Sequence record: ON062054.1
From: Escherichia phage P818
Length of the DNA: 49,175 bases
Strand: one strand, 5' to 3'
How positions within the stretch are numbered: the stretch's first letter is position 1; every line of letters begins with the position of its first letter. This document shows positions 2,300 to 46,710 of this stretch, piece by piece. A program made the position numbers and the translations under genes. The notes below the pieces were generated by a model, which saw only the letters and a list, made by a program, of their open reading frames with translations, had not been told where the DNA came from and did no database searches.

Positions 2300-2332
2300 C
2301 TCTTTAATCCTCGTTCGTTGTTGATGTGGGTA

Positions 2333-2360
2333 ACTATACGCGCTTGGTTGCGTTAGTCAA
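2333..2360 (-). promoter_or_regulatory. Canonical sigma70-type promoter for the recombination operon
   Basis: Minus-sense TTGACT-16 bp-TATAGT followed by leader TACCCACATCAACAACGAACGAGG and RBS; no dyad motif here. Confidence 0.55.
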
Positions 2361-2585
2361 GTGGTTACATGTAGATATTTGTAATCACGTGTATGCAATG
2401 GCGTCAGTTACATAAAATGGCTATCCAGACCAGCTATAGCTTGATGTAAACAGCGTGTATATCGTGTATACCATTTTTCACGGAGGGTGCATTGGTATGC
2501 GGGTGATTAAGTACTGTATAAATGTACATATTATAATTTTATAACCGGAACACTCTATAGAAGTAGTTACATGATATACACAGTA

Positions 2586-2690
2586 ATATATATAATAATA
2601 ATAATAAGAGTAAAAGGTTGATATATATAGATATTTTAGTGTAACCATTGCGTAAATCGGCGTAAAAGCGCGTATATCATTTTCAGCGGA
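2586..2690. repeat. Control-region element, copy A
   Basis: (TA)n plus (ATA)n tract followed by GATATTTTAGTGTAACCATTGCGTAA; about 70% identical to 31889-32000. Confidence 0.6.
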
Positions 2691-2716
2691 AGAGATTGTA
2701 TACATCGATTTACATC

Positions 2717-2730
2717 GGTTACGCGTAACC
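2717..2730. promoter_or_regulatory. Perfect 14-bp palindrome GGTTACGCGTAACC
   Basis: Exact inverted repeat in the 2300-2910 noncoding region. Confidence 0.4.
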
Positions 2731-2755
2731 GTGATTTATGGTGGAATTGGCGATA

Positions 2756-2776
2756 AATGGCACGTTTTGCTAAAGA
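2756..2776 (+). promoter_or_regulatory. Dyad motif copy 2 (degenerate: AATGGCAC-N4-TTGCTAAAG)
   Basis: 22 bp downstream is TATATT (2795-2800); upstream of the 2911 gene. Confidence 0.45.
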
Positions 2777-2910
2777 CATCTGACTATCTTTAGGTATATT
2801 TAGGCGCATGGAGGCAATGGTGTCGTCATCTTTCCCTAAATTTCAGGAAAAGGTGGATTTTAATCAATCATTATCCAAATATGGATGATCCAAACTGAAG
2901 AGAGACGAAA

Positions 2911-3579: not shown

Positions 3580-3891
<312 letters not shown>

Positions 3892-4830: not shown

Positions 4831-4856
4831 AAAGCCCCTTTCGGGGCTTTTGTTTT
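4831..4856. terminator. Bidirectional intrinsic terminator between convergent genes
   Basis: AAAGCCCCTTTCGGGGCTTT hairpin with T-runs on both strands. Confidence 0.7.
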
Positions 4857-7800
4857 AGAAAGTACCTACCACAACTCTTCCTCCTCCAGGCAAGTTAACC
4901 GTTATTCCGTTTCCGTTAATCTGTACCGTATTGTTTGTTCCGTTGAATGCGAATTCACCACTGTTGGCGTACAGTTTACCGCGAATCTCAGCGTTACCAG
5001 ACTTATCAATCCTCCAGCCTGTGCTTCCTGCTACGTAGTTGCTGGACTGAATAAAGTTACCAATCTTCGCGTTAGTAATTGAGCCATCGCCAATTACAGC
5101 GCTTTGGATGATTACGTTTCCGTTCTCTACAACGAAGGGGAGTTGCCATTGACCGGAACCAGAACCAATTCCGTTACTGATTGCGAATCTGTTTGCGTCA
5201 AAAATGAACTGACTGCGAACGTTTCCATCAGTGCCAACTAGCTCCATGCTCATCCCTGCGCTATACTCAACCCCATTATATTTTAGACCTAACTTAACGC
5301 CGTACTGAGCGCCAGCGGATTCTGCATCCACCCAGGAATCAAGTTTTTCATTCAGTGCTGCCTGAGTATCTCCAAGCTGAGCACTCAGAGCTGTATCCGC
5401 CGTGGTCCTTGCTTCCGTTTCGGTGGCTAGTGCCGTCTGAACTTCAGTTATGGAGGCTACGACCTCATCATCAATCTGCGCTTTAAGCTGAGTGAGAGCC
5501 TCTACGCGAGCCTGAGTTTCATCGGCAATAAGATTCACTGCCTGAACGTATTCAGCCTTTCTCTTGCCGTTCTCCTTGGTCATTCGTCGAACGTCAGTAT
5601 CGTTTGCAAGTGCGTTTTCAAGAATTGACTCCGCCTGCGCCTGAATAGCTCCGTTTGACTCAATGGCGTTCTGCTGTAGGTACTTAAACCCCTCGGAATT
5701 CTCGATATCAACCTTTATCTCTCCAATGATTGACTCAACGTCATCGCTTGCCATTCCGCGAACAATGTCAGACCAGTCAGAGGCGTTACCAATCCTGTCT
5801 ACCAATCTTGCCCTGTACCAGTTCACATATCCTGCCGGTAGTGTCGAGTGCCAGTACTCGTACTGAGGGTATGGAATCATTGTTAACAGGCTTGCGTTCT
5901 CCTCGCCTGTGTGACCTCCGGCGCCATTATCTGGTATCTGCTGCAACTCAGTGTAGGCAGTGTCGCCAGAACCTTCAGGGAAACCCCATTTAACCCGTAT
6001 CCCAAACACCTGGTCGTCAGATGCAGTTATGACTGTTGGTTTATCTGGCTTCCCAATCTTACCCGTCAATCCGACGCTGACAACTTCAGACCATGGAGAC
6101 GTGTTTCCACCGCTTGAGATACTCCTTACGCGTACGTGATAATTACCCGCATAAATACCTTCCACTTCAACCTCTGAGCTTGCTGTGCGCGGCACGTTCA
6201 TCCAGTTGCCGTTATCCTTTCGCCACTGCACGTCGTACTTGCTCGCGTACTGAACCTTGTCCCACCCTATCACCATTGTCTCAACGCTCATCCCCTGCAC
6301 AATTCGAGAGTATGATGAAACGATAATGTTTTTTGGTGGCTGCATGTTGTCAGGATCAACAATGCTTGTTGGTCGGTCATCAATATTTACGCCGTAGTCG
6401 ATCTCATCGTATTTGTTTGGATCGTATTCAACCGCCGTGATGCTGTACGTGAACTCATCGTCTCCGTCGCCCTTCGTGATTCCGGTTACAACGTATTGCT
6501 GCAAGGCCACATCAGTGCGGTCGATTGCGAACACTGTGTTGGGTTGAACATCAAAACCGAATCCAACGTTAAGCTCAATGGTTTTCCCGTCCGCAGAAAC
6601 TTTTGAAATCGTCCGGCGCACCGGATTTCCGTCAGCCTTGTTCACGATAATGAAATCACCAGCGCGCGCATCGACCTTAAAGTGTGTGAACACTTGCAGG
6701 CCAGAAACTTCCATCACACGACCTGATAACGAAAGCGTCAGGTTACTTGACCAGAAGTTATCAGCGATTGCTACCACGTCGCCAATCATCGGAATCATAC
6801 CCTCAAGGCCAGTAGCAAAACTCACCGTCGTGCTGCGAAGGTTTGTTTTGAGAACCCAACGGCCCCGTCGATTCGCTTCACTGCGTCGAGTACACCCGAT
6901 CGCCGTGATGCTTGTCGGATTATGACCGAAGCGTAATGAGGCGTTAAGGTCGAATACCCCCTCAATGTCCTGGCTGTACATGTTCTGCTCGTCGTCGAAC
7001 GTGACGTTGCAGGTTGTGTACATGCTTTTTTCACTTGCGAACGTATAGGCAAATGAGCCATCAACGACGTTGTCGTTAGTGAAAATATATGAAGCCTCTC
7101 TCGGTCGGTCGATGACAATTGAGAGGCTCTCACCGTTCCAGAAGCTCATCCCTCGGAAGATTGAGCAAATATCTCGAACCAGATTGTAAGCCTCAACCTG
7201 AGATTGGATTACCACATCGCAAAGGTAGCGAGGCTCCAACCCTCCGTGACCGTCAGGAACCTTCTGATCGCAGTATTGACCAGCATCATATAGCGACCAC
7301 TTATCAACGGCGATCCCCAACTCTCTTTGGTCGAGTCCGTAGCGCTGATTGGTGATCAAATCATAAAGCACCCACGCCGGATTATTTGACCATGCTTTTT
7401 TAAAACTCCCATCCCATGTGCCGCTATATTCACGTAGCTCTGGGTTGTAGTTGCTCGGAACGTTAATGAGCTTCCATTTCTTTTTCGTGCTAATGCTTGG
7501 GATTTGCGTGAATAGATCGCTGTTAAACTCGACGTAAACAAGACCAGTCAGAGGGTAACGGAATTTAGCATCAACCACTTCGGCATAAGACTGAATGTTT
7601 ATCGTGTCAACGACGCGCGAATCAGTTGAATCAGCCGTAACGCGTCGCACACGCAATAGAACCTGACTATTGAACTTTGGGAGGTCGATTCGTTTTGTTT
7701 TGTCATATCCGCTAATTGTCTTACCGTCGATTACGTCTGATAAAACTTCCTGGTAGTTCCCGCCATCAACCGCCATATCTACGGCCCACTTCACAACCAC

Positions 7801-8220
7801 GCCGACCATATCGCCGTTTTCTTTCGTGGTAACGCCGCGAGGCATCAGGATTTTTACGCGGACTGCTGATAGCTGCTTATTCGTTACCGAGATCACGTAA
7901 GGCGTCGTTGTTTTCAATTCACGACCTACAGTGAACTCAGCCGCCGTGTCGTTGAATCCTTTGATGTAATCCTGAGTCTGCGTTCCAGGGCGAAACTCAG
8001 CCGTTACGCCTTCATAGTTAACCTCGCCGGATGGTGCAATTACAGGAACATCATTAAGATATAAGTCCTTTAATGAGAAATTAGCATCAACCTCGCCATC
8101 ACTAACGGCGAGCAAAACCTTAATCTTGTTGATTGAGATCAGGTTATCTTCCATCTCCTGTGGGGTATGCGGCTTGCTGCTGCCACCCTTTCGGCCCGTC
8201 ACTACATTATTTTTAATCAT
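4855..8220 (-). CDS. Central tail fiber / host specificity protein (lambda J-like)
   Basis: 1121 aa, last gene of the tail operon after I/K/L/M homologs. Confidence 0.8.
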   Translation of the reverse strand: MIKNNVVTGRKGGSSKPHTPQEMEDNLISINKIKVLLAVSDGEVDANFSLKDLYLNDVPVIAPSGEVNYEGVTAEFRPGTQTQDYIKGFNDTAAEFTVGRELKTTTPYVISVTNKQLSAVRVKILMPRGVTTKENGDMVGVVVKWAVDMAVDGGNYQEVLSDVIDGKTISGYDKTKRIDLPKFNSQVLLRVRRVTADSTDSRVVDTINIQSYAEVVDAKFRYPLTGLVYVEFNSDLFTQIPSISTKKKWKLINVPSNYNPELREYSGTWDGSFKKAWSNNPAWVLYDLITNQRYGLDQRELGIAVDKWSLYDAGQYCDQKVPDGHGGLEPRYLCDVVIQSQVEAYNLVRDICSIFRGMSFWNGESLSIVIDRPREASYIFTNDNVVDGSFAYTFASEKSMYTTCNVTFDDEQNMYSQDIEGVFDLNASLRFGHNPTSITAIGCTRRSEANRRGRWVLKTNLRSTTVSFATGLEGMIPMIGDVVAIADNFWSSNLTLSLSGRVMEVSGLQVFTHFKVDARAGDFIIVNKADGNPVRRTISKVSADGKTIELNVGFGFDVQPNTVFAIDRTDVALQQYVVTGITKGDGDDEFTYSITAVEYDPNKYDEIDYGVNIDDRPTSIVDPDNMQPPKNIIVSSYSRIVQGMSVETMVIGWDKVQYASKYDVQWRKDNGNWMNVPRTASSEVEVEGIYAGNYHVRVRSISSGGNTSPWSEVVSVGLTGKIGKPDKPTVITASDDQVFGIRVKWGFPEGSGDTAYTELQQIPDNGAGGHTGEENASLLTMIPYPQYEYWHSTLPAGYVNWYRARLVDRIGNASDWSDIVRGMASDDVESIIGEIKVDIENSEGFKYLQQNAIESNGAIQAQAESILENALANDTDVRRMTKENGKRKAEYVQAVNLIADETQARVEALTQLKAQIDDEVVASITEVQTALATETEARTTADTALSAQLGDTQAALNEKLDSWVDAESAGAQYGVKLGLKYNGVEYSAGMSMELVGTDGNVRSQFIFDANRFAISNGIGSGSGQWQLPFVVENGNVIIQSAVIGDGSITNAKIGNFIQSSNYVAGSTGWRIDKSGNAEIRGKLYANSGEFAFNGTNNTVQINGNGITVNLPGGGRVVVGTF

Positions 8221-26074: not shown

Positions 26075-26093
26075 TTTTAACAAAAAGTGCTAT
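26075..26093 (-). promoter_or_regulatory. Dyad motif copy 4
   Basis: Minus-sense TAGCACTTTTTGTTAAAA overlapping upstream stop; 22 bp then TATAGT inside a hairpin, then TACCCCATCGAAACGAA box. Confidence 0.6.
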
Positions 26094-28657: not shown

Positions 28658-28676
28658 TTTTAACAAAAAGTGCTAT
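28658..28676 (-). promoter_or_regulatory. Dyad motif copy 7
   Basis: Minus-sense AATAGCACTTTTTGTTAAA overlapping stop; 22 bp then TATAGT inside hairpin GGAGAC...GTCTCC. Confidence 0.6.
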
Positions 28677-31605: not shown

Positions 31606-31641
31606 TACTCCTGATTGGTTGGTCTTCGTTAAGATGACTCC

Positions 31642-31669
31642 ACAGTATCACATATCTACGCGTTATCAA
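31642..31669 (-). promoter_or_regulatory. Sigma70-type early promoter (leftward) in control region B
   Basis: Minus-sense TTGATA-16 bp-TACTGT followed by CATCTTAACGAAG box and RBS. Confidence 0.45.
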
Positions 31670-31888
31670 GTGTTATCAGTGCAAATTTTCTGAATAGTTA
31701 CAGATTTATGCCAATTTCGCCATATATAGCTAAATGTAAAGTCTGCGTACAGTTTGTAGATAAAGATTTTTAGCAAATTGGCCCCTACATGCCTTTTTAT
31801 TCCTACAATGTCGTCATATTCCTACAAGTGTAGGAAAATATCATAGAAAACTATCGCAATATCACATATCAACCATCTACATTATCTA

Positions 31889-32000
31889 CATATATATATA
31901 TTAATAATAATAATATAGATAAATGGTTATTATATAAGGATATTTTAATGTAACCATGGCGTAATTAAGCGTGATGTGCGTACATGATTCCCACGGAGTG
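31889..32000. repeat. Control-region element, copy B
   Basis: (TA)n plus (ATA)n tract followed by GATATTTTAATGTAACCATGGCGTAA; about 70% identical to 2586-2690. Confidence 0.6.
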
Positions 32001-32116
32001 ATGGCGTGTCTACATGGCATAACATAAATAACGCGTATGCGATGAAATCGTGTGGCGGAAAATCCTACCAGGCGATCAGGGGATCAGATCTCACCCCATC
32101 ATTCCCCCCATAAATG

Positions 32117-32215
32117 AATCATTGCTCAATTCGCAACAATCGAAAACATCATTGCAATAGATGCAATATTGCTATATGTGCAATAGTCATGAGAATCATT
32201 GCAATAGCTGCAACA
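32117..32215. repeat. Iteron-like cluster (ATCATTGCAATAG-type repeats)
   Basis: At least four direct copies of TCATTGC(A/T)(A/C)A(A/T)T(A/C)G within about 100 bp, just upstream of motif copy 10. Confidence 0.55.
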
Positions 32216-32231
32216 ATCCATAAATCGAACG

Positions 32232-32249
32232 AATAGCACTTTTTGCTAA
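32232..32249 (+). promoter_or_regulatory. Dyad motif copy 10
   Basis: AATAGCACTTTTTGCTAA; 23 bp then TATTGT then TACCTCATCGAAACGAAGGAG and ATG at 32301. Confidence 0.55.
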
Positions 32250-32300
32250 TGACCGATCAGGTGTGATTCGCTATTGTTACCTCATCGAAACGAAGGAGAT

Positions 32301-32735
32301 ATGAAGATGAAGAACGGCGTAATTTACAAGCACAGTGACGGAACTACTCGGTTCGTCACGACCTCAGGCCGGATGTATATTTGGGCTTACGGAGCCTGGC
32401 GGTTCAAGGTACAGATGCATGAGGCGACGTATAATATGTTCCTCCGCGCTGCACGACTCAAAGATAACAAGGTGTTCGTTGCGAAGAGTCGCAAGGTATT
32501 CATGGATAATCGCGTCGCGTTCGATCCTATTGACTACCAGGCGGTTGAGTTCACTGGTCTAAGGTTGAGTAAAATTCGGTTGTTGCGCAGCGAACAGATT
32601 GCAATGATTCAGCAAAATTCGGCTATTGCGCACGCCACGGAAGCACGACATCGCCTCCTGACTGGTTATCAGCCCATCATCACGCCGACGCCGTTTTACG
32701 TGCATAAGCAACGACCACCGAAAATCCATAAATAG
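32301..32735 (+). CDS. Hypothetical early protein
   Basis: 144 aa; start refined to ATG after AAGGAG RBS. Confidence 0.55.
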   Translation: MKMKNGVIYKHSDGTTRFVTTSGRMYIWAYGAWRFKVQMHEATYNMFLRAARLKDNKVFVAKSRKVFMDNRVAFDPIDYQAVEFTGLRLSKIRLLRSEQIAMIQQNSAIAHATEARHRLLTGYQPIITPTPFYVHKQRPPKIHK

Positions 32736-32749
32736 CACTAATTGCTAAA
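32730..32749 (+). promoter_or_regulatory. Dyad motif copy 11
   Basis: AAATAGCACTAATTGCTAAA overlapping stop TAG; hairpin in spacer; CATAAT; CATCGAAACGAAG box. Confidence 0.6.
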
Positions 32750-32813
32750 CGAAGCCTCACGGATTGAGGCATAATCATTTCATCGAAACGAAGTACACAA
32801 AGAGGAAGTAAAA

Positions 32814-33038
32814 ATGTCAGTTAAAGCTCAGAACGTAGTGGCACACATCGAAGCAAAAGGCCGTGCAATCGTCAAGCTGGACCGCGCCGCAGGCGTAAGC
32901 CAAATTACCATCACGCGCCGTGAGTTCGACCGCTACGTTGTTGGAACACATCCAGGCTCAATCATCCGTAGCCTCACCCGCGCCGAGATGGTCAACCTGT
33001 TAAACGATAACTCACTTTACATCAATTCCTGGAGCTAA
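32814..33038 (+). CDS. Hypothetical small protein
   Basis: 74 aa; AGAGGAAG RBS. Confidence 0.55.
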   Translation: MSVKAQNVVAHIEAKGRAIVKLDRAAGVSQITITRREFDRYVVGTHPGSIIRSLTRAEMVNLLNDNSLYINSWS

Positions 33039-33256: not shown

Positions 33257-33265
33257 GGAATCATG

Positions 33266-33505
33266 ATGAAAATTCGCTGCAAAAACGTAATCACTAGCAC
33301 AGACAAGAAGGTTTTAACACCATTCGTAAAAGGCTCTGTATACGACGCTGAGCCGCTAATCATTAACGGCAAGACAATCCCGAACGAATGGGTTATTAAT
33401 GGCGCTGAGCGACCGCACAAGCACGATTCTGGCTGGATTGCTATCGCAGGCTGGGAGGTCGGAATGTTTATCCCTGGTATTGCAACTTTTGACAAGGTGA
33501 AATAA
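33266..33505 (+). CDS. Hypothetical small protein
   Basis: 79 aa; start at second ATG (5 nt after AAGGAA). Confidence 0.5.
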   Translation: MKIRCKNVITSTDKKVLTPFVKGSVYDAEPLIINGKTIPNEWVINGAERPHKHDSGWIAIAGWEVGMFIPGIATFDKVK

Positions 33506-33663: not shown

Positions 33664-34229
33664 ATAGAAAAAGAAGTCCAGACGGAAAATTTTCTGGTGA
33701 TCCGCTACTACCTGGAGGTTTTCATAATTGCAACTCATGCGGAATTAAAAAGGAGGCTGACGATAAAAACTTTAGAACAATAAATAAAGGAAAAACATGC
33801 GAGAGCCTAAGCAAAACTTGCAGAAAATGCGAGTATCAAAAAGGAAAGGATAAACACGCAAGGAACATGAAAAACCCTGAATTTGCAGATGCTAGAAGGG
33901 AAAGGTGCAGGAACTGGAGGAGCAACAACAGAAGTAAGGTGGCGCTTAAAAATTATCAAGCAATAGATAAAAAGAAAGGACTTACATGCACCATGACAAT
34001 TGATGATGTTGAGGAGTTGCAGTCAATGCCATGCTACTATTGCGGAGATACGGATCGGGTTGGTGCTGACAGGATTGACAACTCACTTGCTCACACGCGC
34101 AAAAACTGCCTTCCATGTTGCCCTGATTGTAATATCTGTAGGAGTAACACTTTTTCAGTTGATGAGATGATGGTGATAGGCAAAGCGATAAGACTCGTAA
34201 AGAAATCAAGAAATAGCACGAATTGCTAA
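33660..34229 (+). CDS. HNH-type endonuclease / zinc-finger protein
   Basis: 189 aa; multiple CxxC pairs and RIDNSLAHTRKNCLPCCPDCN motif. Confidence 0.6.
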   Translation: MNRKRSPDGKFSGDPLLPGGFHNCNSCGIKKEADDKNFRTINKGKTCESLSKTCRKCEYQKGKDKHARNMKNPEFADARRERCRNWRSNNRSKVALKNYQAIDKKKGLTCTMTIDDVEELQSMPCYYCGDTDRVGADRIDNSLAHTRKNCLPCCPDCNICRSNTFSVDEMMVIGKAIRLVKKSRNSTNC

Positions 34230-34230
34230 A
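34211..34230 (+). promoter_or_regulatory. Dyad motif copy 12
   Basis: AAATAGCACGAATTGCTAAA (translated as NSTNC-stop); terminator hairpin in 22-bp spacer; TATATT; CATCCCATCGAAACGAA box. Confidence 0.6.
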
Positions 34231-34294
34231 GCCCTTCGGGGCTTTTCCTGTATATTCATCCCATCGAAACGAAACACACTAAAGGAAAATAATC

Positions 34295-34648
34295 ATGGCT
34301 ACCACACTGACAAAGAACTTCGTGAGTTCAGACAATAAACTCTTTAAAGCTCGAGTGAAAGATGATGTAGAGCAAATCAAGGTAAGTGGCAAGTGGGTTA
34401 ACCTGGATATCAAAGGTCGTTACATCAAGACTAAAACCCTTTACGTTACGAAGGTGAATCATAAATCTGCCGTTAAAAAATACTTCACGCAAGGTAAACG
34501 CTATCAGGTTGACATGCGCGCAGGACTCGGTAGTAACGCTGGTTACATCTTTGATAATGATGGAGTGGCCTGGCAGTTGTACCGCTCGGATGACGTCGGA
34601 TTCGAAACGTTATGCGGAACCTACCGATTTGAGGCGGCGTATAAATAA
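34295..34648 (+). CDS. Hypothetical protein
   Basis: 117 aa; AAGGAAAA RBS. Confidence 0.55.
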   Translation: MATTLTKNFVSSDNKLFKARVKDDVEQIKVSGKWVNLDIKGRYIKTKTLYVTKVNHKSAVKKYFTQGKRYQVDMRAGLGSNAGYIFDNDGVAWQLYRSDDVGFETLCGTYRFEAAYK

Positions 34649-34719: not shown

Positions 34720-36303
34720 ATGTTTGATTTCAACGAAGATAAATTGTCAATCGATCAGGTAATGGCTGTAGCCGCTGCCGACAACCTGCCGCCTTTGCGC
34801 GTTGCCATTAATGCGAATGGGTACAGGCAGAGCCAGTCGTTCTGGAAAGCTCCAACAGAAATCGACTCGGGCGGTGACAAATATCCGGTTATCTCACTTG
34901 GTAACGATTATGATGTCGTTGGCAAGCTGTCAAGCAATGCCGCCCGCTCTGTCCAGTTCCCTGAGTCGTCAGCATACATGCATTTCCTCGGATGCATATC
35001 AGCCGCCATGCTGGGCCGCTTTACGGTTGAGTATCACGGAACACAACAGCCGACCGCTCTGTATGTCGTAACCAGTCAGCCACCATCGACAGGTAAATCA
35101 GCCATCAACTCACTTTCGCTGGCCCCGATGATCGCAGAGACTGAACGACTCAACGAGATCCGAAAGCGCGACCGCAAGAAGATTATGGCTAAGCTTTCCG
35201 CTCTATCCAAGGAGATGAAGCAGGAGAAATCACCATCTGACATGGCGGCGCTGTTTGAGGAAAAAGAAGAACTGGAAGAAAAACTGGAACGCCTTTGTGA
35301 CATCGTATTCCCCGTATCCGACACCACGCCGGAAGGTCTTGCGCGAATCAACAACCGCCAGGGCAACTTTGCAGTAATCTCGGATGAAGCAACGAGCGTG
35401 AACTCACTGTTAGGCATGACCTATGGTGACGGCTCAAAGAAAACGAACAGCGAGCTTGTGCTTAAGGCTTGGGATGCTGGTAACGTATCTATCGCCCGTG
35501 CGAACGCAGACAATAACATGAGCTTCATTGCGATGGGCTGCATATCTGTAATTGCACAGGATGAAACAATAAACGCGATCATGAATGCTGGTGCGCGTGG
35601 TATCGGTGTGTCAGAACGTTTCTTGCTTGTGCGTGAGAAGTCATTCCTTGGCGAGCGTGTATTCGTTGACGAAAAAGGCGAATCAACATACGAGCCGATT
35701 GATGGCGGACTCAAGGCGGACTACTTCCGTCTGGTCCATGAGATCATGAGCGAACACGAAGTCAATCTGACAGTGAGCACATCGGCGATGAAATATCTCA
35801 ACCGTGCGCGTCAGGATATGGAACCTCACCTTGCGGACGGCGGGAAGTATTCACACACAATGCTTCGCGGCGCGCTGGGTAAGTTCGATAAGCAGGCCAT
35901 CAGGATCGCAGCTGTTCTTCACACTGTGCGTAACTGGTTTAATCCCAATGGCGGGAGTCCGCAGAAGTCCAGAGAGATTGAGCTTGACACAATGCAGGAA
36001 GCGGTAATTATGTTCCAGGAACTGAGTAAGACTTATCTGTCATCTGCAAACGCTGCTGGTCATGCTGGCGACCATGCGGAGATGAATAAGCTGATCGATA
36101 TTCTGATCAAGCAAGGTAAGAACGGGAAAGGCGTTGTAGGTGTACGATCCCTATATGAAGCGGCTCGCAAGGTTAAACCCTTTGAAGGGCAAAGTGGTGT
36201 AATGACTCGCATCAAAGATCACCTGATCCCTATGCTTGATGAGAAGAACTATACGTGCCTGATTGGTGATAAAATTTACATTAATCCGCGACTGCTGGGG
36301 TAA
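34720..36303 (+). CDS. P-loop NTPase, putative replication initiation/helicase-loader-type protein
   Basis: 527 aa; Walker A PSTGKS and Walker B VISDEA; N- and C-terminal blocks shared with the 30512-31078 paralog. Confidence 0.6.
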   Translation: MFDFNEDKLSIDQVMAVAAADNLPPLRVAINANGYRQSQSFWKAPTEIDSGGDKYPVISLGNDYDVVGKLSSNAARSVQFPESSAYMHFLGCISAAMLGRFTVEYHGTQQPTALYVVTSQPPSTGKSAINSLSLAPMIAETERLNEIRKRDRKKIMAKLSALSKEMKQEKSPSDMAALFEEKEELEEKLERLCDIVFPVSDTTPEGLARINNRQGNFAVISDEATSVNSLLGMTYGDGSKKTNSELVLKAWDAGNVSIARANADNNMSFIAMGCISVIAQDETINAIMNAGARGIGVSERFLLVREKSFLGERVFVDEKGESTYEPIDGGLKADYFRLVHEIMSEHEVNLTVSTSAMKYLNRARQDMEPHLADGGKYSHTMLRGALGKFDKQAIRIAAVLHTVRNWFNPNGGSPQKSREIELDTMQEAVIMFQELSKTYLSSANAAGHAGDHAEMNKLIDILIKQGKNGKGVVGVRSLYEAARKVKPFEGQSGVMTRIKDHLIPMLDEKNYTCLIGDKIYINPRLLG

Positions 36304-36853: not shown

Positions 36854-37234
36854 TCGAAAAAAGGTCCATATTGTAAATGAGAAAAGCAATAGGCTAATTA
36901 GAATTAAAGCAAGACCAAATGCAATCCTTCCACCTCCTTCCTCATTCCTGATCTCAATCTTATCAGCGATGATGTTGTCAGCCTTGATGCTTGATGTGCT
37001 GACGGATTTCCCGTTGGAAGTATCAACCTTCCCAACCTTTGAATCTTTGATAGTGGTGTCATTTTCGTTTGACTTATCCACCTTTCCGGTAACGCCTACC
37101 GCTTGCTTCACGTTCTCGGCCCCAGCCTGTGCTGTAACTTCCGGCTTGCTGCCAATTAATCCGGTCAGCGCAGATGTTGCTGAGCACCCAGATAAAGCCA
37201 TGCACATTACTAACGCTGCAATCCACTTAAACAT
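36845..37234 (-). CDS. Unimolecular spanin (u-spanin)
   Basis: 129 aa; N-terminal lipoprotein signal with lipobox LSGC and C-terminal TM helix; start embedded in 3' end of endolysin gene. Confidence 0.65.
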   Translation of the reverse strand: MFKWIAALVMCMALSGCSATSALTGLIGSKPEVTAQAGAENVKQAVGVTGKVDKSNENDTTIKDSKVGKVDTSNGKSVSTSSIKADNIIADKIEIRNEEGGGRIAFGLALILISLLLFSFTIWTFFRKK

Positions 37235-40777: not shown

Positions 40778-41012
40778 ACGCAAAATCTTCGGGGCAAGCA
40801 AGCATATAGTCTTCAAGGTCTTTCCGTATTGCACGGCTCCAGCTATTAAGTGGCTTATCTCTAATCTCTTCAAATGACATATCCAGATCTGAGAACTCCC
40901 AAGCGTCACCATTAAACCCCGCTTTAGTTAGCTCCTTGCAGACGATCGCGCGGAATAAAAGATACTGACCATTGTGGTTTAGATTAATTTTCATACCGCT
41001 CATTTTAAACAC
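40776..41012 (-). CDS. Hypothetical small protein
   Basis: 78 aa; 8-nt overlap with methylase gene. Confidence 0.4.
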   Translation of the reverse strand: MFKMSGMKINLNHNGQYLLFRAIVCKELTKAGFNGDAWEFSDLDMSFEEIRDKPLNSWSRAIRKDLEDYMLACPEDFA

Positions 41013-41733
41013 TCCGTTTACGTGGTTTCTTACGGCTTACGCCAGGGCAAATATCAGCGACGCTAACATATGTAGTCTTCTGCGTCTCGCCTTCTTTCAG
41101 TTTTCGCATTACAAAAATAACAGAGCCTTTATTATTACCATCGACAGGCTTTCCGGTCAGGCCTGATATGAATGCCAGCCTTCCGGTTCGGCAGTATTCC
41201 TGCTGGTCAATTTCTGTTATCTCCGCCTCAATCCAGATGATTTCAGCCGCGTTGCGTCTGGCTTCTGCAAACCACGCCGTTGAGTTATCACCAGGAAGCA
41301 ACATATCAATCTGATTGTTGTGTTCCATCTGCTCAATCGCTTTCTTCACGAAAGGATCTGGATGTGAGTATGGCGGGTTAAGCCATATGTGCTTATTGCT
41401 ACCCCAACAAATTTTGAGACAGTTCACTTGCTCGCTGTAGAACTTTTCGCAAACAGCATTGTTAGCGCTGGCGGCGGCGTCAATGTCATACTTCCCATAA
41501 CGCGACTCCATCCATGAGATCACTTCTCTGTCAGTGGCCCATAGGTCACGAACTGCGTCAGGCGTCTTGCTTCCGGCGTATCTGTTTCCAGTTACCTGAT
41601 AGAAGGTGTCTGGCTTAACCGCCTGGTAATGACCATTTCCAGGAACAAGCGCATTAGTAACAAAATTTTCACGCTCGATCTGCTCAAAGATAACGAATGC
41701 GTCATGAGTATCCTTGTCGTTTGAGTCGATCAT
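41005..41733 (-). CDS. DNA N6-adenine methyltransferase (phage Dam-like)
   Basis: 242 aa; NPPY catalytic motif. Confidence 0.75.
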   Translation of the reverse strand: MIDSNDKDTHDAFVIFEQIERENFVTNALVPGNGHYQAVKPDTFYQVTGNRYAGSKTPDAVRDLWATDREVISWMESRYGKYDIDAAASANNAVCEKFYSEQVNCLKICWGSNKHIWLNPPYSHPDPFVKKAIEQMEHNNQIDMLLPGDNSTAWFAEARRNAAEIIWIEAEITEIDQQEYCRTGRLAFISGLTGKPVDGNNKGSVIFVMRKLKEGETQKTTYVSVADICPGVSRKKPRKRSV

Positions 41734-44569: not shown

Positions 44570-44589
44570 GTTTAACAAAAAGTGCTATT
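44570..44589 (-). promoter_or_regulatory. Dyad motif copy 16 (shared by divergent helicase and HTH promoters)
   Basis: Minus-sense AATAGCACTTTTTGTTAAAC; 21 bp then TATTAT (44546-44551), 44-nt leader to helicase ATG; same site lies after the predicted start of the plus-strand promoter. Confidence 0.6.
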
Positions 44590-44600
44590 GAGGTGATAAA

Positions 44601-45074
44601 ATGAATGCAACTGATAAGCGTACTCTTAACGGCAATAACGGAACTATCCGCACAGAAGATAAGAAGCAGCGTAAGCGACCGTCAGGTTACTATGTTCTCA
44701 AGGATGAAGTAAAGGCCGGATTAAGAGCGCGACTTGATATTGTATTTGAGTTCTACGGCAGCAAGGCGAACATGGCTAAGCAATTAAAGGTTACTCGACA
44801 GGCCGTTGAAGAATGGTTTAAGCGTGGAATGATGTCGGCACGCGGCGCTCAACTGGCGCACAACAGATATAAGCGAACTGGCGAAGGGTTCCGCGCTACA
44901 TTCTGCCGCCCTGATCTGCAATTCGACGGGAACGGCAAGCCGCTAACGCTGCGTTGCAAAAAGCGTCACATGCTGCGCGTCGTCACCGAGGCTGAACTAG
45001 CCACTAAGCCTGAATGTCGCTCATGGCGAAAAATTAAAGCAGCAAACGAAGCAGCACGGAAAGCTAAAGAATGA
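44601..45074 (+). CDS. HTH DNA-binding protein (Cro/YdaS-like), candidate regulator
   Basis: 157 aa; HTH-like segment SKANMAKQLKVTRQAVEEWFKRG; basic C-terminal half. Confidence 0.55.
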   Translation: MNATDKRTLNGNNGTIRTEDKKQRKRPSGYYVLKDEVKAGLRARLDIVFEFYGSKANMAKQLKVTRQAVEEWFKRGMMSARGAQLAHNRYKRTGEGFRATFCRPDLQFDGNGKPLTLRCKKRHMLRVVTEAELATKPECRSWRKIKAANEAARKAKE

Positions 45075-45105: not shown

Positions 45106-45654
45106 CTATCTATCTCCGTCACACCCAAACTCACCATGATAATAATTACTGGCTTTTAAGTACGCTTCACGCGCCGACTCCTTTGTGGTATGCCTTCCTA
45201 GCCATATTTTTTTATTATTAACCCATATCCACGCCGTGTACTTCCCTGTTTGCTTGCAGAATCCAACGCCTTTTACTCCTGATGTATTGTGAGATGGTTT
45301 TTTCATATTTCTATTGTTCTCAGATGATGACGCTTCCCTTAGGTTTTCTATCCTATTGTCAGTCCTGATCCCGTTTTTATGATCTATATACTTAGAAGGC
45401 CATTCACCTTTACAAAGCGCCCATGAAACCCTATGGCATTTAACGTCGAATCCGAAAAATCTGAAAACCTTATAACCAGATTTATGGACCGTTCCGGCCT
45501 CATCTCCAGATTTAACCCTATTAGATGTGCTTTTTACCCAAATTATAACTCCGTTGTCGTATTTAAGGTAATTCCTAAGCATATCAATACTAATCAATGA
45601 CTCTTTTGCCTTCATTAAATCAAAGTCTTTGCTCATTTCATTTTCCTCATTCAT
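45106..45654 (-). CDS. HNH endonuclease with AP2-like domain (copy 3)
   Basis: 182 aa; YIDHKNGIRTDNRIENLREASSSENNRN motif. Confidence 0.8.
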   Translation of the reverse strand: MNEENEMSKDFDLMKAKESLISIDMLRNYLKYDNGVIIWVKSTSNRVKSGDEAGTVHKSGYKVFRFFGFDVKCHRVSWALCKGEWPSKYIDHKNGIRTDNRIENLREASSSENNRNMKKPSHNTSGVKGVGFCKQTGKYTAWIWVNNKKIWLGRHTTKESAREAYLKASNYYHGEFGCDGDR

Positions 45655-45697: not shown

Positions 45698-46639
45698 ATG
45701 ATGGATATGTATCAAAAAGAGGAAGTTATACCTTACATGAAGGGTCTTTGGAGGGAAGCTCTGCAATCAATATGTGGCCTTGATAACTCATACTTCACGA
45801 AGCGACATGGGCCATGCCCGCATTGCTTTGGAAAGGACCGTTTCCGGTGGACTGACGAACTAGAATCCCCTGGTGACGGCGGCGCGATCTGTAACGGATG
45901 TGGTAACGATAAAGGCGTCGGCTGGATGATGAAACTGACTGGTGAGCCTTACAGTGAAGTGATTAACATCCTTGGTAGATTCCTTGGTAAAGTTCCGCAG
46001 GATTACAAAGCTAAGGCTTACCGCAGGGCGTCTCGCGTACCGGAGAAAGGCCTTGGCAGGATGGCGGATCATGAGTCGTGCGTATCTGTAATGGAGCGCA
46101 CAGAAAAGCGCGAGAGCACCGATTTAAGCGTGTATGAGTGCCTAACCGAAGATTCATATGATGTTGGCGTAAAAGTGCGTCAGAATGGCACTGAGGAGCT
46201 AATACACGCACTACCGTGCTACATGGTCCACCATGACGGAATTGATGAGGATATGTGTAACGTCATGTTTGCTTATGATAATGGCGAATACACTTTCCTT
46301 GCGCGTGATTATTCTCGCGGCTCAGTGGTTAAGCTGGGGAGTGGTGAGGATGATGCAGCTATATATATGACAAGCGATCTGATTGATGGTTATCGTGTGA
46401 AGATGGCGACCAGTCAGGAAGTGTGGGTGACTTTCTCCCCTGAGAATCTTGAGATTGTTGCTTATCGTTATCGTGGCGATCGAGAGTTGCGAGTTGCTTG
46501 TGCGGCTGACGATTTGAGAACGCTTTACATGGCTGATGAGAGAGATTTGAAGGTCGTCGTGCCGAACGGTGGAAACTTCAAGATGGGCCTTGAGCGAAAG
46601 CTATATACGCCGCAGGATCTGATAGATAAGTATTCATGA
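45698..46639 (+). CDS. Putative DNA primase (zinc-binding N-terminal domain)
   Basis: 313 aa; CPHC...CNGC zinc-ribbon-like motif near N-terminus; adjacent to helicase. Confidence 0.55.
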   Translation: MMDMYQKEEVIPYMKGLWREALQSICGLDNSYFTKRHGPCPHCFGKDRFRWTDELESPGDGGAICNGCGNDKGVGWMMKLTGEPYSEVINILGRFLGKVPQDYKAKAYRRASRVPEKGLGRMADHESCVSVMERTEKRESTDLSVYECLTEDSYDVGVKVRQNGTEELIHALPCYMVHHDGIDEDMCNVMFAYDNGEYTFLARDYSRGSVVKLGSGEDDAAIYMTSDLIDGYRVKMATSQEVWVTFSPENLEIVAYRYRGDRELRVACAADDLRTLYMADERDLKVVVPNGGNFKMGLERKLYTPQDLIDKYS

Positions 46640-46668: not shown

Positions 46669-46692
46669 TCCTTTGTTATGATACAATGCTCT

Positions 46693-46710
46693 TTAGCAAT
46701 TCGTGCTAAA
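46693..46710. promoter_or_regulatory. Dyad motif copy 17 (perfect palindrome TTTAGCA-ATTCG-TGCTAAA)
   Basis: Only perfect copy; lies between an extended -10-like TGATACAAT (46679-46687) and the tail fiber RBS. Confidence 0.6.

Follow-up and report, generated by a model that had tools for sequence, protein, structure and literature searches.

Two conserved AT-rich non-coding modules of Escherichia phage P818 as possible paired replication modules of T1-like phages

Escherichia phage P818 (sequence record ON062054.1) carries two co-oriented copies of a non-coding element, one in region A (2300-2910) and one in region B (31606-32300) of the stretch of 49,175 nucleotides analysed here. This stretch, referred to as the window, is the nearly complete genome of a T1-like siphophage (Drexlerviridae, Nouzillyvirus/Rtp-like). 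Judged from sequence, and at somewhat short of even confidence, the two copies are taken to be paired cis-acting replication modules, either two origins or an origin and a helper region. This reading is put first because the copies combine the least stable DNA, phased repeats, a possible bend by integration host factor (IHF) and a position between divergent genes, and because the phage encodes its own helicases and primase and the ori/crr pair of P4 gives a precedent. Protein binding, unwinding and origin activity of the modules are what we infer from these features. According to published work (PMC7718038; PMC11447400), the origin of T1-like phages has yet to be located, and the literature on T1-like origins, transcription start sites and replication profiling, the Rtp genome paper not included, held nothing on the element.

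A preliminary description of this DNA had placed its two largest non-coding regions at points where the coding strand switches. The map of open reading frames (ORFs) agrees, in that regions A and B are the two largest ORF-free gaps in the window and each sits between divergently oriented genes. The description had also read, in both regions and in the same orientation, a (TA)n tract followed by GATATTTTA(G/A)TGTAACCAT(T/G)GCGTAA, which is correct, the tract being of the (TA)n/(AAT)n type. It was right about the similarity as well, but the ~100 bp at ~70% identity that it gave underestimated both size and strength. The shared element really covers ~2562-2735 and 31875-32040 and is longer and stronger than first said, because a gapped MAFFT alignment of the two copies gives a mean column identity of 82% over ~180 columns. 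An ungapped repeat of 71 nt (2593-2663 and 31902-31972) is 80% identical. The 26-mer GATATTTTARTGTAACCATKGCGTAA is present in the window only at 2630 and 31939, with 0 occurrences expected, and no match was obtained in 100 shuffles, even when three mismatches were allowed.

Duplex stability was calculated from nearest-neighbour stacking energies over stretches of 40, 60 and 100 bp along the whole 49-kb window. At all three sizes, the AT-rich tract of copy B is the least stable (z = 5.1-5.5) and that of copy A comes second (z = 4.4-5.0), while the next independent low-stability site reaches only z ~3. The stability minimum is found at the same place in 13 of 13 further region A loci from T1-like and TLS-like Drexlerviridae (z = 4.1-4.9). 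Two features looked for in an origin are thus present, namely an AT-rich tract of exceptionally low duplex stability and, beside it, at least three short direct repeats in helical phase, the latter being just 5-6 bp long.

The anatomy of the modules was read from an alignment of 11 orthologues of copy A and nine of copy B, taken from Nouzillyvirus, Rtpvirus, Guelphvirus, Veterinaerplatzvirus and Rogunavirus. The order of parts is two TAYACA 9-mers, (TA)n with AATAATAATAATA, an IHF-like core, TGTAAC, three GCGTA, a variable stretch with TACAY motifs, and ACGYGTA. The features of the two copies in the window are as follows.

2553-2731, plus strand: copy A, a conserved island from CTATAGAAGTAGTTACA to GGTTACGCGTAACC, near-invariant in 10 phages of five genera, with flanks that diverge or cannot be aligned.
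2565-2582, plus strand: two adjacent 9-mers, AGTTACATG and ATATACACA, both built on TAYACA, to the left of the AT tract and kept in every A copy and most B copies.
2584-2644, no strand: AT-rich tract of copy A, (TA)n(AAT)n...TATATATAGATATTTTA, a candidate DNA-unwinding element and the second least stable 60-mer (z = 4.96).
2611-2623, minus strand: perfect match to the IHF core consensus, TATCAACCTTTTA (WATCAANNNNTTR), one of only four in the window on both strands.
2640-2647, minus strand: inverted GGTTACA (TGTAACCA) at the right edge of the AT tract, with TGTAAC kept in A and most B copies.
2650-2674, plus strand: GCGTA three times in direct orientation, spaced by 10 + 10 bp, resembling iterons and conserved in copies of both kinds.
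2436-2512, plus strand: GTAAACAGCGTGTATATCGTGTATACCATTTTTCACGGAG, an incomplete third copy of the iteron half lying upstream, across the AT tract from the GCGTA triplet, and aligning with 2646-2722 and 31955-32030.
2716-2731, no strand: palindrome CGGTTACGCGTAACCG, of which only GGTTACGYGTA is conserved in the alignment of orthologues.
31865-32045, plus strand: copy B, co-oriented with copy A (repeat, MAFFT and 26-mer comparison).
31875-31903, plus strand: 3.1 tandem 9-mers ATCTACATT, TAYACA-type, left of the AT tract (Tandem Repeats Finder; alignment).
31881-31949, no strand: AT-rich tract of copy B, a candidate DNA-unwinding element and the least stable stretch of the window at all sizes tested.
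31959-31982, plus strand: GCGTAA, GCGTGA and GCGTAC repeats of copy B with 10 + 9 bp spacing (sequence; alignment).
32031-32037, plus strand: ACGCGTA motif at the right end of copy B (motif scan; alignment).

Within the AT tract, AATAATAATAATA is invariant in 20 of the 20 aligned A and B copies. The pair of TAYACA 9-mers has an inverted copy at 2455-2468 that is 93% complementary, and T1 carries GTTACACGATATACA at the position of the 9-mers. Read in reverse complement, TAAAWGGTTGWTATATATAGATATT of the module becomes TATCAACCWTTTA, a predicted IHF site. It agrees with the core consensus in every A copy and in roughly half of the B copies, and copy B of the window deviates from the core at two positions. 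At the right edge of the tract, TGTAACCA pairs in inverted orientation with GGTTACAT at 2363, and motifs of the GGTTACA type recur in both orientations across region A, inverted on both sides of the AT tract. GCGTRN5GCGTRN5GCGTA, of which 0.01 occurrences are expected, is matched in the window only by the GCGTA triplet of copy A. The upstream partial copy has a core that is conserved among Rtp-like A orthologues.

Two smaller claims of the preliminary description fared less well. Its CACGGAG-containing repeats did not hold up, as the heptamer occurs once per region (2479 and 31992) and five times in the window, where four are expected; it falls inside the weakly similar block that is present three times, as the upstream partial copy and the two stretches aligned with it. 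The perfect palindrome GGTTACGCGTAACC reported at 2717-2730 is indeed there and actually extends to 16 nt, but it is not conserved as such and the meaning given to it falls away, since orthologues carry GGTTACGTGTAACC or GGTTACGCGTATAC at this site. Of ACGCGTA there are eight sites in the window, and four of the eight are within regions A and B.

Copy A matches 134 phage records at 78-99% identity, which is higher than that of its flanks. When the genome was compared with five phages belonging to other genera, no 170-nt stretch exceeded 2554-2723 (mean identity 0.916), which shares the first rank with one small early gene; the DUF3987 helicase gene ranks lower. The mean identity of 2555-2730 is 0.903, corresponding to the 99.9th percentile. 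A ten-genome alignment shows the borders of the island to be sharp, at ~2553 and ~2731, and they remain so in AHS24, where the left flank is unalignable, and in genomes with other neighbour genes. The preliminary description had made its proposal depend on conservation in related phages; copy A is very strongly conserved in these, and the pair recurs in T1-like and TLS-like phages. Other top conserved stretches of the genome are 33323-33492 (in a small early ORF, 33263-33505), 5058-5227 (in a tail-fibre-like gene, 4855-8220) and 35438-36174 (in the DUF3987 helicase gene).

Orthologues of copy B were found in Rtp, Msk, TH30, ETEP102, IME542, AHS24 and Veterinaerplatzvirus. Copy B is only moderately conserved, with a mean identity of 0.68 among B copies versus 0.91 among A copies. 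Identity between A and B is 0.697 within a genome versus 0.694 between genomes, close to the value among B copies, and concerted evolution or gene conversion between the copies was rejected on these values as a general rule; only the B copy of Rtp looks A-like. Because the two values are equal, A and B are best described as old paralogues that have not been homogenised. The same motifs have been kept in both although the copies evolve independently, which points to selection on a common set of positions or binding sites as what holds their shared part. The exact 26-mer was found only in ESCO41, and an IMG/VR scan for TGTAACCATNGCGTA gave 109 stretches, nearly all of them chance matches in unrelated contigs. 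Plasmids and E. coli genomes contained no sequence similar to the element.

The pairing extends across the family. In each of T1 and seven further Tunavirinae, these two positions hold a co-oriented A/B pair of the phage's own, made of ACACGMTATACAAC..TRTTACA followed by an AT tract of 60-90 nt, and region B of T1 also retains GGCGTAATTTGGCGTAA. TLS (Tempevirinae) likewise has its own pair at these positions, in which GAACA/AAACA repeats make up the left flank, inverted TGTTC stands on the right, in the place equivalent to that of the inverted GGTTACA, and GTGAAC/GGAACA follow beyond it. When 296 kb of family loci were searched with a profile of the Rtp-like copies, region B of T1 (E = 6e-4) and region A of TLS (E = 4e-3) were recovered at the correct place and on the correct strand. 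Since the GCGTA triplet is lacking in region A of T1 and in TLS, only the AT tract and some flanking repeat are universal. The constants of the family are two copies, a fixed orientation, an AT tract and short flanking repeats, while the repeat sequence itself varies by lineage (GTTACAC/TATACA in T1, GAACA/TGTTC in TLS). Such lineage-specific flanking repeats are as expected for iterons that co-evolve with their initiator. In TLS, regions A and B also share a second block ~100 bp further left.

The nearest records to the window are phage p111, ESCO41 (Nouzillyvirus), GaoY1-9D and Rtp-like phages, and its gene order is the same as that of Rtp. Region A has a leftward exonuclease/Erf/SSB operon on its left and a rightward series of genes on its right, beginning with an anti-repressor gene and followed by cor and membrane-protein genes. 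To the left of region B is a long leftward operon (a DUF7174 gene, small early genes, terminase and structural genes), and to its right a rightward early operon runs to the DUF3987 helicase gene, which lies 2.4 kb downstream of copy B. The window encodes helicases and a primase, including the DUF3987 helicase (34720-36303) and the primase (45698-46639). Candidates for an initiator are the DUF3987 helicase and a Cro-like helix-turn-helix (HTH) protein (44601-45074). An HNH-AP2 homing-endonuclease-like gene (45106-45654, minus strand) lies on the opposite strand between the genes for the Cro-like regulator and the primase, and is probably a mobile insertion in the replication module.

If the modules act in replication, the ~60-bp AT-rich tract of each would be the easiest-melting DNA of the genome, bracketed by short repeats: TAYACA/GGTTACA, direct and inverted, and three GCGTA on one helical face. 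An initiator encoded by the phage would bind to these repeats, perhaps with the help of IHF bending at the TATCAACC(W)TTTA site. Melting of the tract would be favoured by negative supercoiling between the divergent transcription units, a build-up that follows from the twin-domain model, and the phage helicase (the DUF3987 protein) and primase would then be loaded. A more specific version is possible though rather doubtful, namely that all Drexlerviridae have a two-locus origin system in which A, with its top-ranking conservation, is the primary loading site for the DUF3987 helicase, on an AT tract that inverted lineage-specific repeats enclose, and B, as the neighbour of the pac cleavage zone, couples replication to packaging initiation as an enhancer or a further origin.

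The closest precedent is the ori/crr system of P4, which likewise consists of two distant non-coding regions that share short repeats around AT-rich DNA. According to the annotation and sequence of the P4 record, its type-1 repeats are 8 bp long (GGTGAACA), spaced by 10-11 bp and present in both orientations. Two distant cis regions with the same short repeats are also what is found here, and throughout the family, and the primase of the window shares an N-terminal zinc ribbon with the P4 alpha protein (E = 3e-9). However, the repeat sequence of P4 is a different one, and crr is a 120-bp tandem duplication. The helicase of the window is unlike alpha, has no alpha-type C-terminal iteron-binding domain and differs in its Pfam domains. 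Membership in the P4 system was therefore rejected, as the helicase is unrelated to alpha by BLASTP and only the zinc ribbon of the primase is common to both. The flanking repeats of TLS include TGTTCACG and GTGAACA, with the same 7-nt core as the P4 type-1 iteron, which may be a coincidence.

SPP1 of Bacillus, a virulent pac-type siphophage, has separate origins, oriL and oriR, in which the same initiator-binding boxes lie beside AT-rich DNA. Its oriL lies inside the initiator gene (gene 38), whereas neither copy is in a gene here, and there is no sequence relationship. The origins of lambda and pSC101 have direct repeats on one helical face beside an AT-rich tract, and pSC101 has an IHF site between the AT-rich DNA and the iterons. 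Copy A resembles pSC101 in that its predicted IHF-like core lies between AT-rich DNA and iteron-like repeats. Known iterons are 17-22 bp long, in contrast to 5-7 bp here.

Several observations weigh against an origin function. Many phage origins are located in or beside the gene of the initiator, but copy A adjoins the exo/Erf/SSB genes, over 10 kb away from the genes for helicase and primase. The signs of GC and AT skew change only where the direction of transcription changes, so that the skews give no replication signal. The DUF3987 helicase has no similarity to P4 alpha (BLASTP E = 0.5) and no solved relative. At 5-7 bp the repeats are short, they are arranged untidily in the B copies, and the GCGTA triplet is missing from region A of T1 and from TLS. 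The near-invariance of copy A is contiguous over 170 bp, which is more than separate binding sites need. Finally, AT-rich, repeat-bearing DNA between divergent promoters is also typical of a regulatory region.

The promoters recognised in region A both lie outside the shared element.

2333-2360, minus strand: leftward sigma-70-like promoter of the exonuclease operon, TTGACT-16-TATAGT, agreeing with the consensus at 10 of 12 positions.
2757-2800, plus strand: rightward promoter of the 21-nt direct-repeat (DR) type, ATGGCACGTTTTGCTAAAGACA-N16-TATATT, flanking the element.

The label of early control regions, under which the preliminary description had placed the two regions, is only partly apt, as the recognisable promoters are outside what the regions share. 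A 21-nt direct repeat was reported for TLS (PMC11447400). The DR of T1-like phages (aaATAGCACnnnTTGnTAAAA) is, like the element, family-specific and intergenic and stands beside the element in many genomes, but it differs in having 18 co-directional copies before operons genome-wide and in lying outside the module shared by A and B. The motif ATAGCAC-N4-TKNTAAA (with a TAGCA-N5-TGCTA dyad), which is the repeat reported for TLS, occurs 18 times in the window with 0.19 expected, nearly always before an operon and co-directional with it, ~22 nt upstream of TATAnT. Examples are 26076-26093 and 28659-28676 (minus strand), 32732-32749 and 34213-34230 (plus strand) and 44571-44588 (minus strand), and one copy, 46692-46709, points against its flanking genes. 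A conserved leader, CCCATCGAAACGAAAC..., lies between DR-type promoters and the start codons of rightward genes (3608-3650, 32265-32307, 32771-32816, 34244-34297) and also precedes cor in relatives.

The main rival to an origin, which we consider fairly unlikely, is a hub of regulation or DNA architecture that serves the divergent early promoters. The GCGTA/ACGCGTA and GGTTACA motifs would be sites for a phage regulator, such as the Cro-like HTH protein, and for host IHF, Fis or H-NS, and the flexible AT tract would allow looping to the flanking promoters and their activation or shut-off. Such a role would suit the location of both copies between divergently transcribed operons, the match to the IHF core consensus within copy A, and the DR motif, which directly abuts copy A in most relatives and copy B in T1. 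In region A, CGCGTA adjoins the -10 of the leftward promoter, and ACGCGTA at 31657-31663 lies inside TTGATA-N16-TACTGT, a putative leftward promoter of region B that the scan tool did not report. However, the element contains no conserved -35/-10 pair, and a sigma-70 promoter inside it was rejected, as the weak matches in the AT tract, at 9 of 12 positions, are not above shuffled controls. The leftward promoter of region A is ~230 bp distant, the 16 other DR promoters of the genome function without such an element, and direct repeats spaced by 10 bp are unusual for dimeric HTH repressors. A hub would also leave unexplained the invariant AT tract and the fact that the two copies are the two least stable sites of the genome. 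A second rival, which we hold to be improbable, makes the element a conserved recombination linker, a patch of homology for the exchange of modules between co-infecting T1-like phages that has no site-specific protein function. In its favour are the sharp borders of conservation, with genes on each side that differ between genera (on the left, either the exonuclease gene immediately or one resembling rtp46; on the right, cor, an anti-repressor gene or KilA), and the location of copy A beside the exo/Erf/SSB recombination genes. Against it, copy B has the same motifs as A yet is not unusually conserved, position and orientation are fixed family-wide, and T1 and TLS hold the architecture in different sequence, which argues for function and not mere shared homology.

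Packaging has to be considered because copy B is 35-170 bp from each mapped or adopted genome end, those of T1, Rtp, OzMSK, XT34 and Msk, and the small terminase might recognise the element as pac or as an accessory site. The combination of hexamer repeats and an IHF site also recalls the pac site of P1. We nevertheless regard this as very improbable, since the repeats at the mapped ends are found only in region B and the better conserved copy A has no mapped end beside it. Msk gave a single PhageTerm peak, with its terminus at 36,862 (PMC8421802), and the T1 record annotates one terminal repeat, which starts in region B. The repeats in question, absent from region A, are the following.

32116-32223, plus strand: B-specific repeats adjoining the element, two copies of GCAACAATC (at 32133 and 32210) and three of the palindromic 17-mer ATTGCAATAGATGCAAT.

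The first of these is homologous to the GCAAC|AATC repeat of T1, and position 1 of the T1 record, the start of its annotated 2800-bp terminal repeat, lies in the second copy of that repeat, in the orientation of the window. The records of XT34, Rtp and OzMSK start at window-equivalents 32173-32213 and the Msk terminus maps to ~32080, so that the ends fall at 32080-32214, right of copy B. The B-specific repeats are thus probably the zone of pac recognition and cleavage, ~7 kb from the terminase genes. The shared element as the pac site itself was rejected, as the ends map in the B-specific repeats: it stands next to pac but is not pac, because the pac repeats are confined to region B and copy A is better conserved without a mapped end. 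Three GATC sites within 17 bp (GATCAGGGGATCAGATC, 32074-32090) lie between copy B and the pac repeats, at about the Msk terminus, and the phage has a gene for a Dam methylase (41005-41733). Together, these hint at methylation control of packaging, which is known for P1. To the left of copy B, tandem 19-mers (ATGCCTTTTTATTCCTACA and ATGTCGTCATATTCCTACA) run into a palindrome, TTCCTACAAGTGTAGGAA (31789-31840).

That the element encodes a small gene or a non-coding RNA is scarcely credible. A 75-codon ORF (2478-2705, minus strand) does span copy A, but it is a poly-Tyr read-through of (ATA)n and was rejected as a gene, as 1-nt indels in ETEP102, T145P1 and AHS24 break its frame. Several records annotate a hypothetical protein over copy A (AHS24 gp28, TR3, IMM-001, PsgS01F and Phagiculus), with ORFs of a poly-Tyr or poly-Leu type (L162, 22307-22513), which is probably a mis-annotation. 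The element has no Rfam match at gathering thresholds, and for neither strand did RNAalifold find a shared structure (-2.9 and -0.4 kcal/mol); with consensus fold energies of about zero, a structured or known RNA was rejected. A miniature mobile element was rejected as well, since the borders have no terminal inverted repeats and the genomes examined hold exactly two copies, syntenic and in fixed orientation. Copy A has ATATACACA and copy B TTATCTACA, each differing at one position from the DnaA box TTATNCACA, but DnaA boxes were dropped, as they are not kept in other B copies.

The shared protein-binding or replication function suggested in the preliminary description is thus partly supported: strong conservation and an origin-like anatomy speak for it, while the function itself is something we infer from sequence. 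T1 belongs to the seven classic T phages and is notorious for contaminating laboratories and fermentations. The present analysis supplies two precisely bounded, family-wide origin candidates with defined motifs. If they are origins, the origin or origins of a whole phage family would be identified, and the lineage-specific repeats would point to the initiator. Work on T1-like phages would also gain a small cis element, of use in their engineering or rebooting and in ori-based detection. If they are a regulatory hub instead, they would still be among the most strongly conserved sequences of these genomes and would merit annotation.

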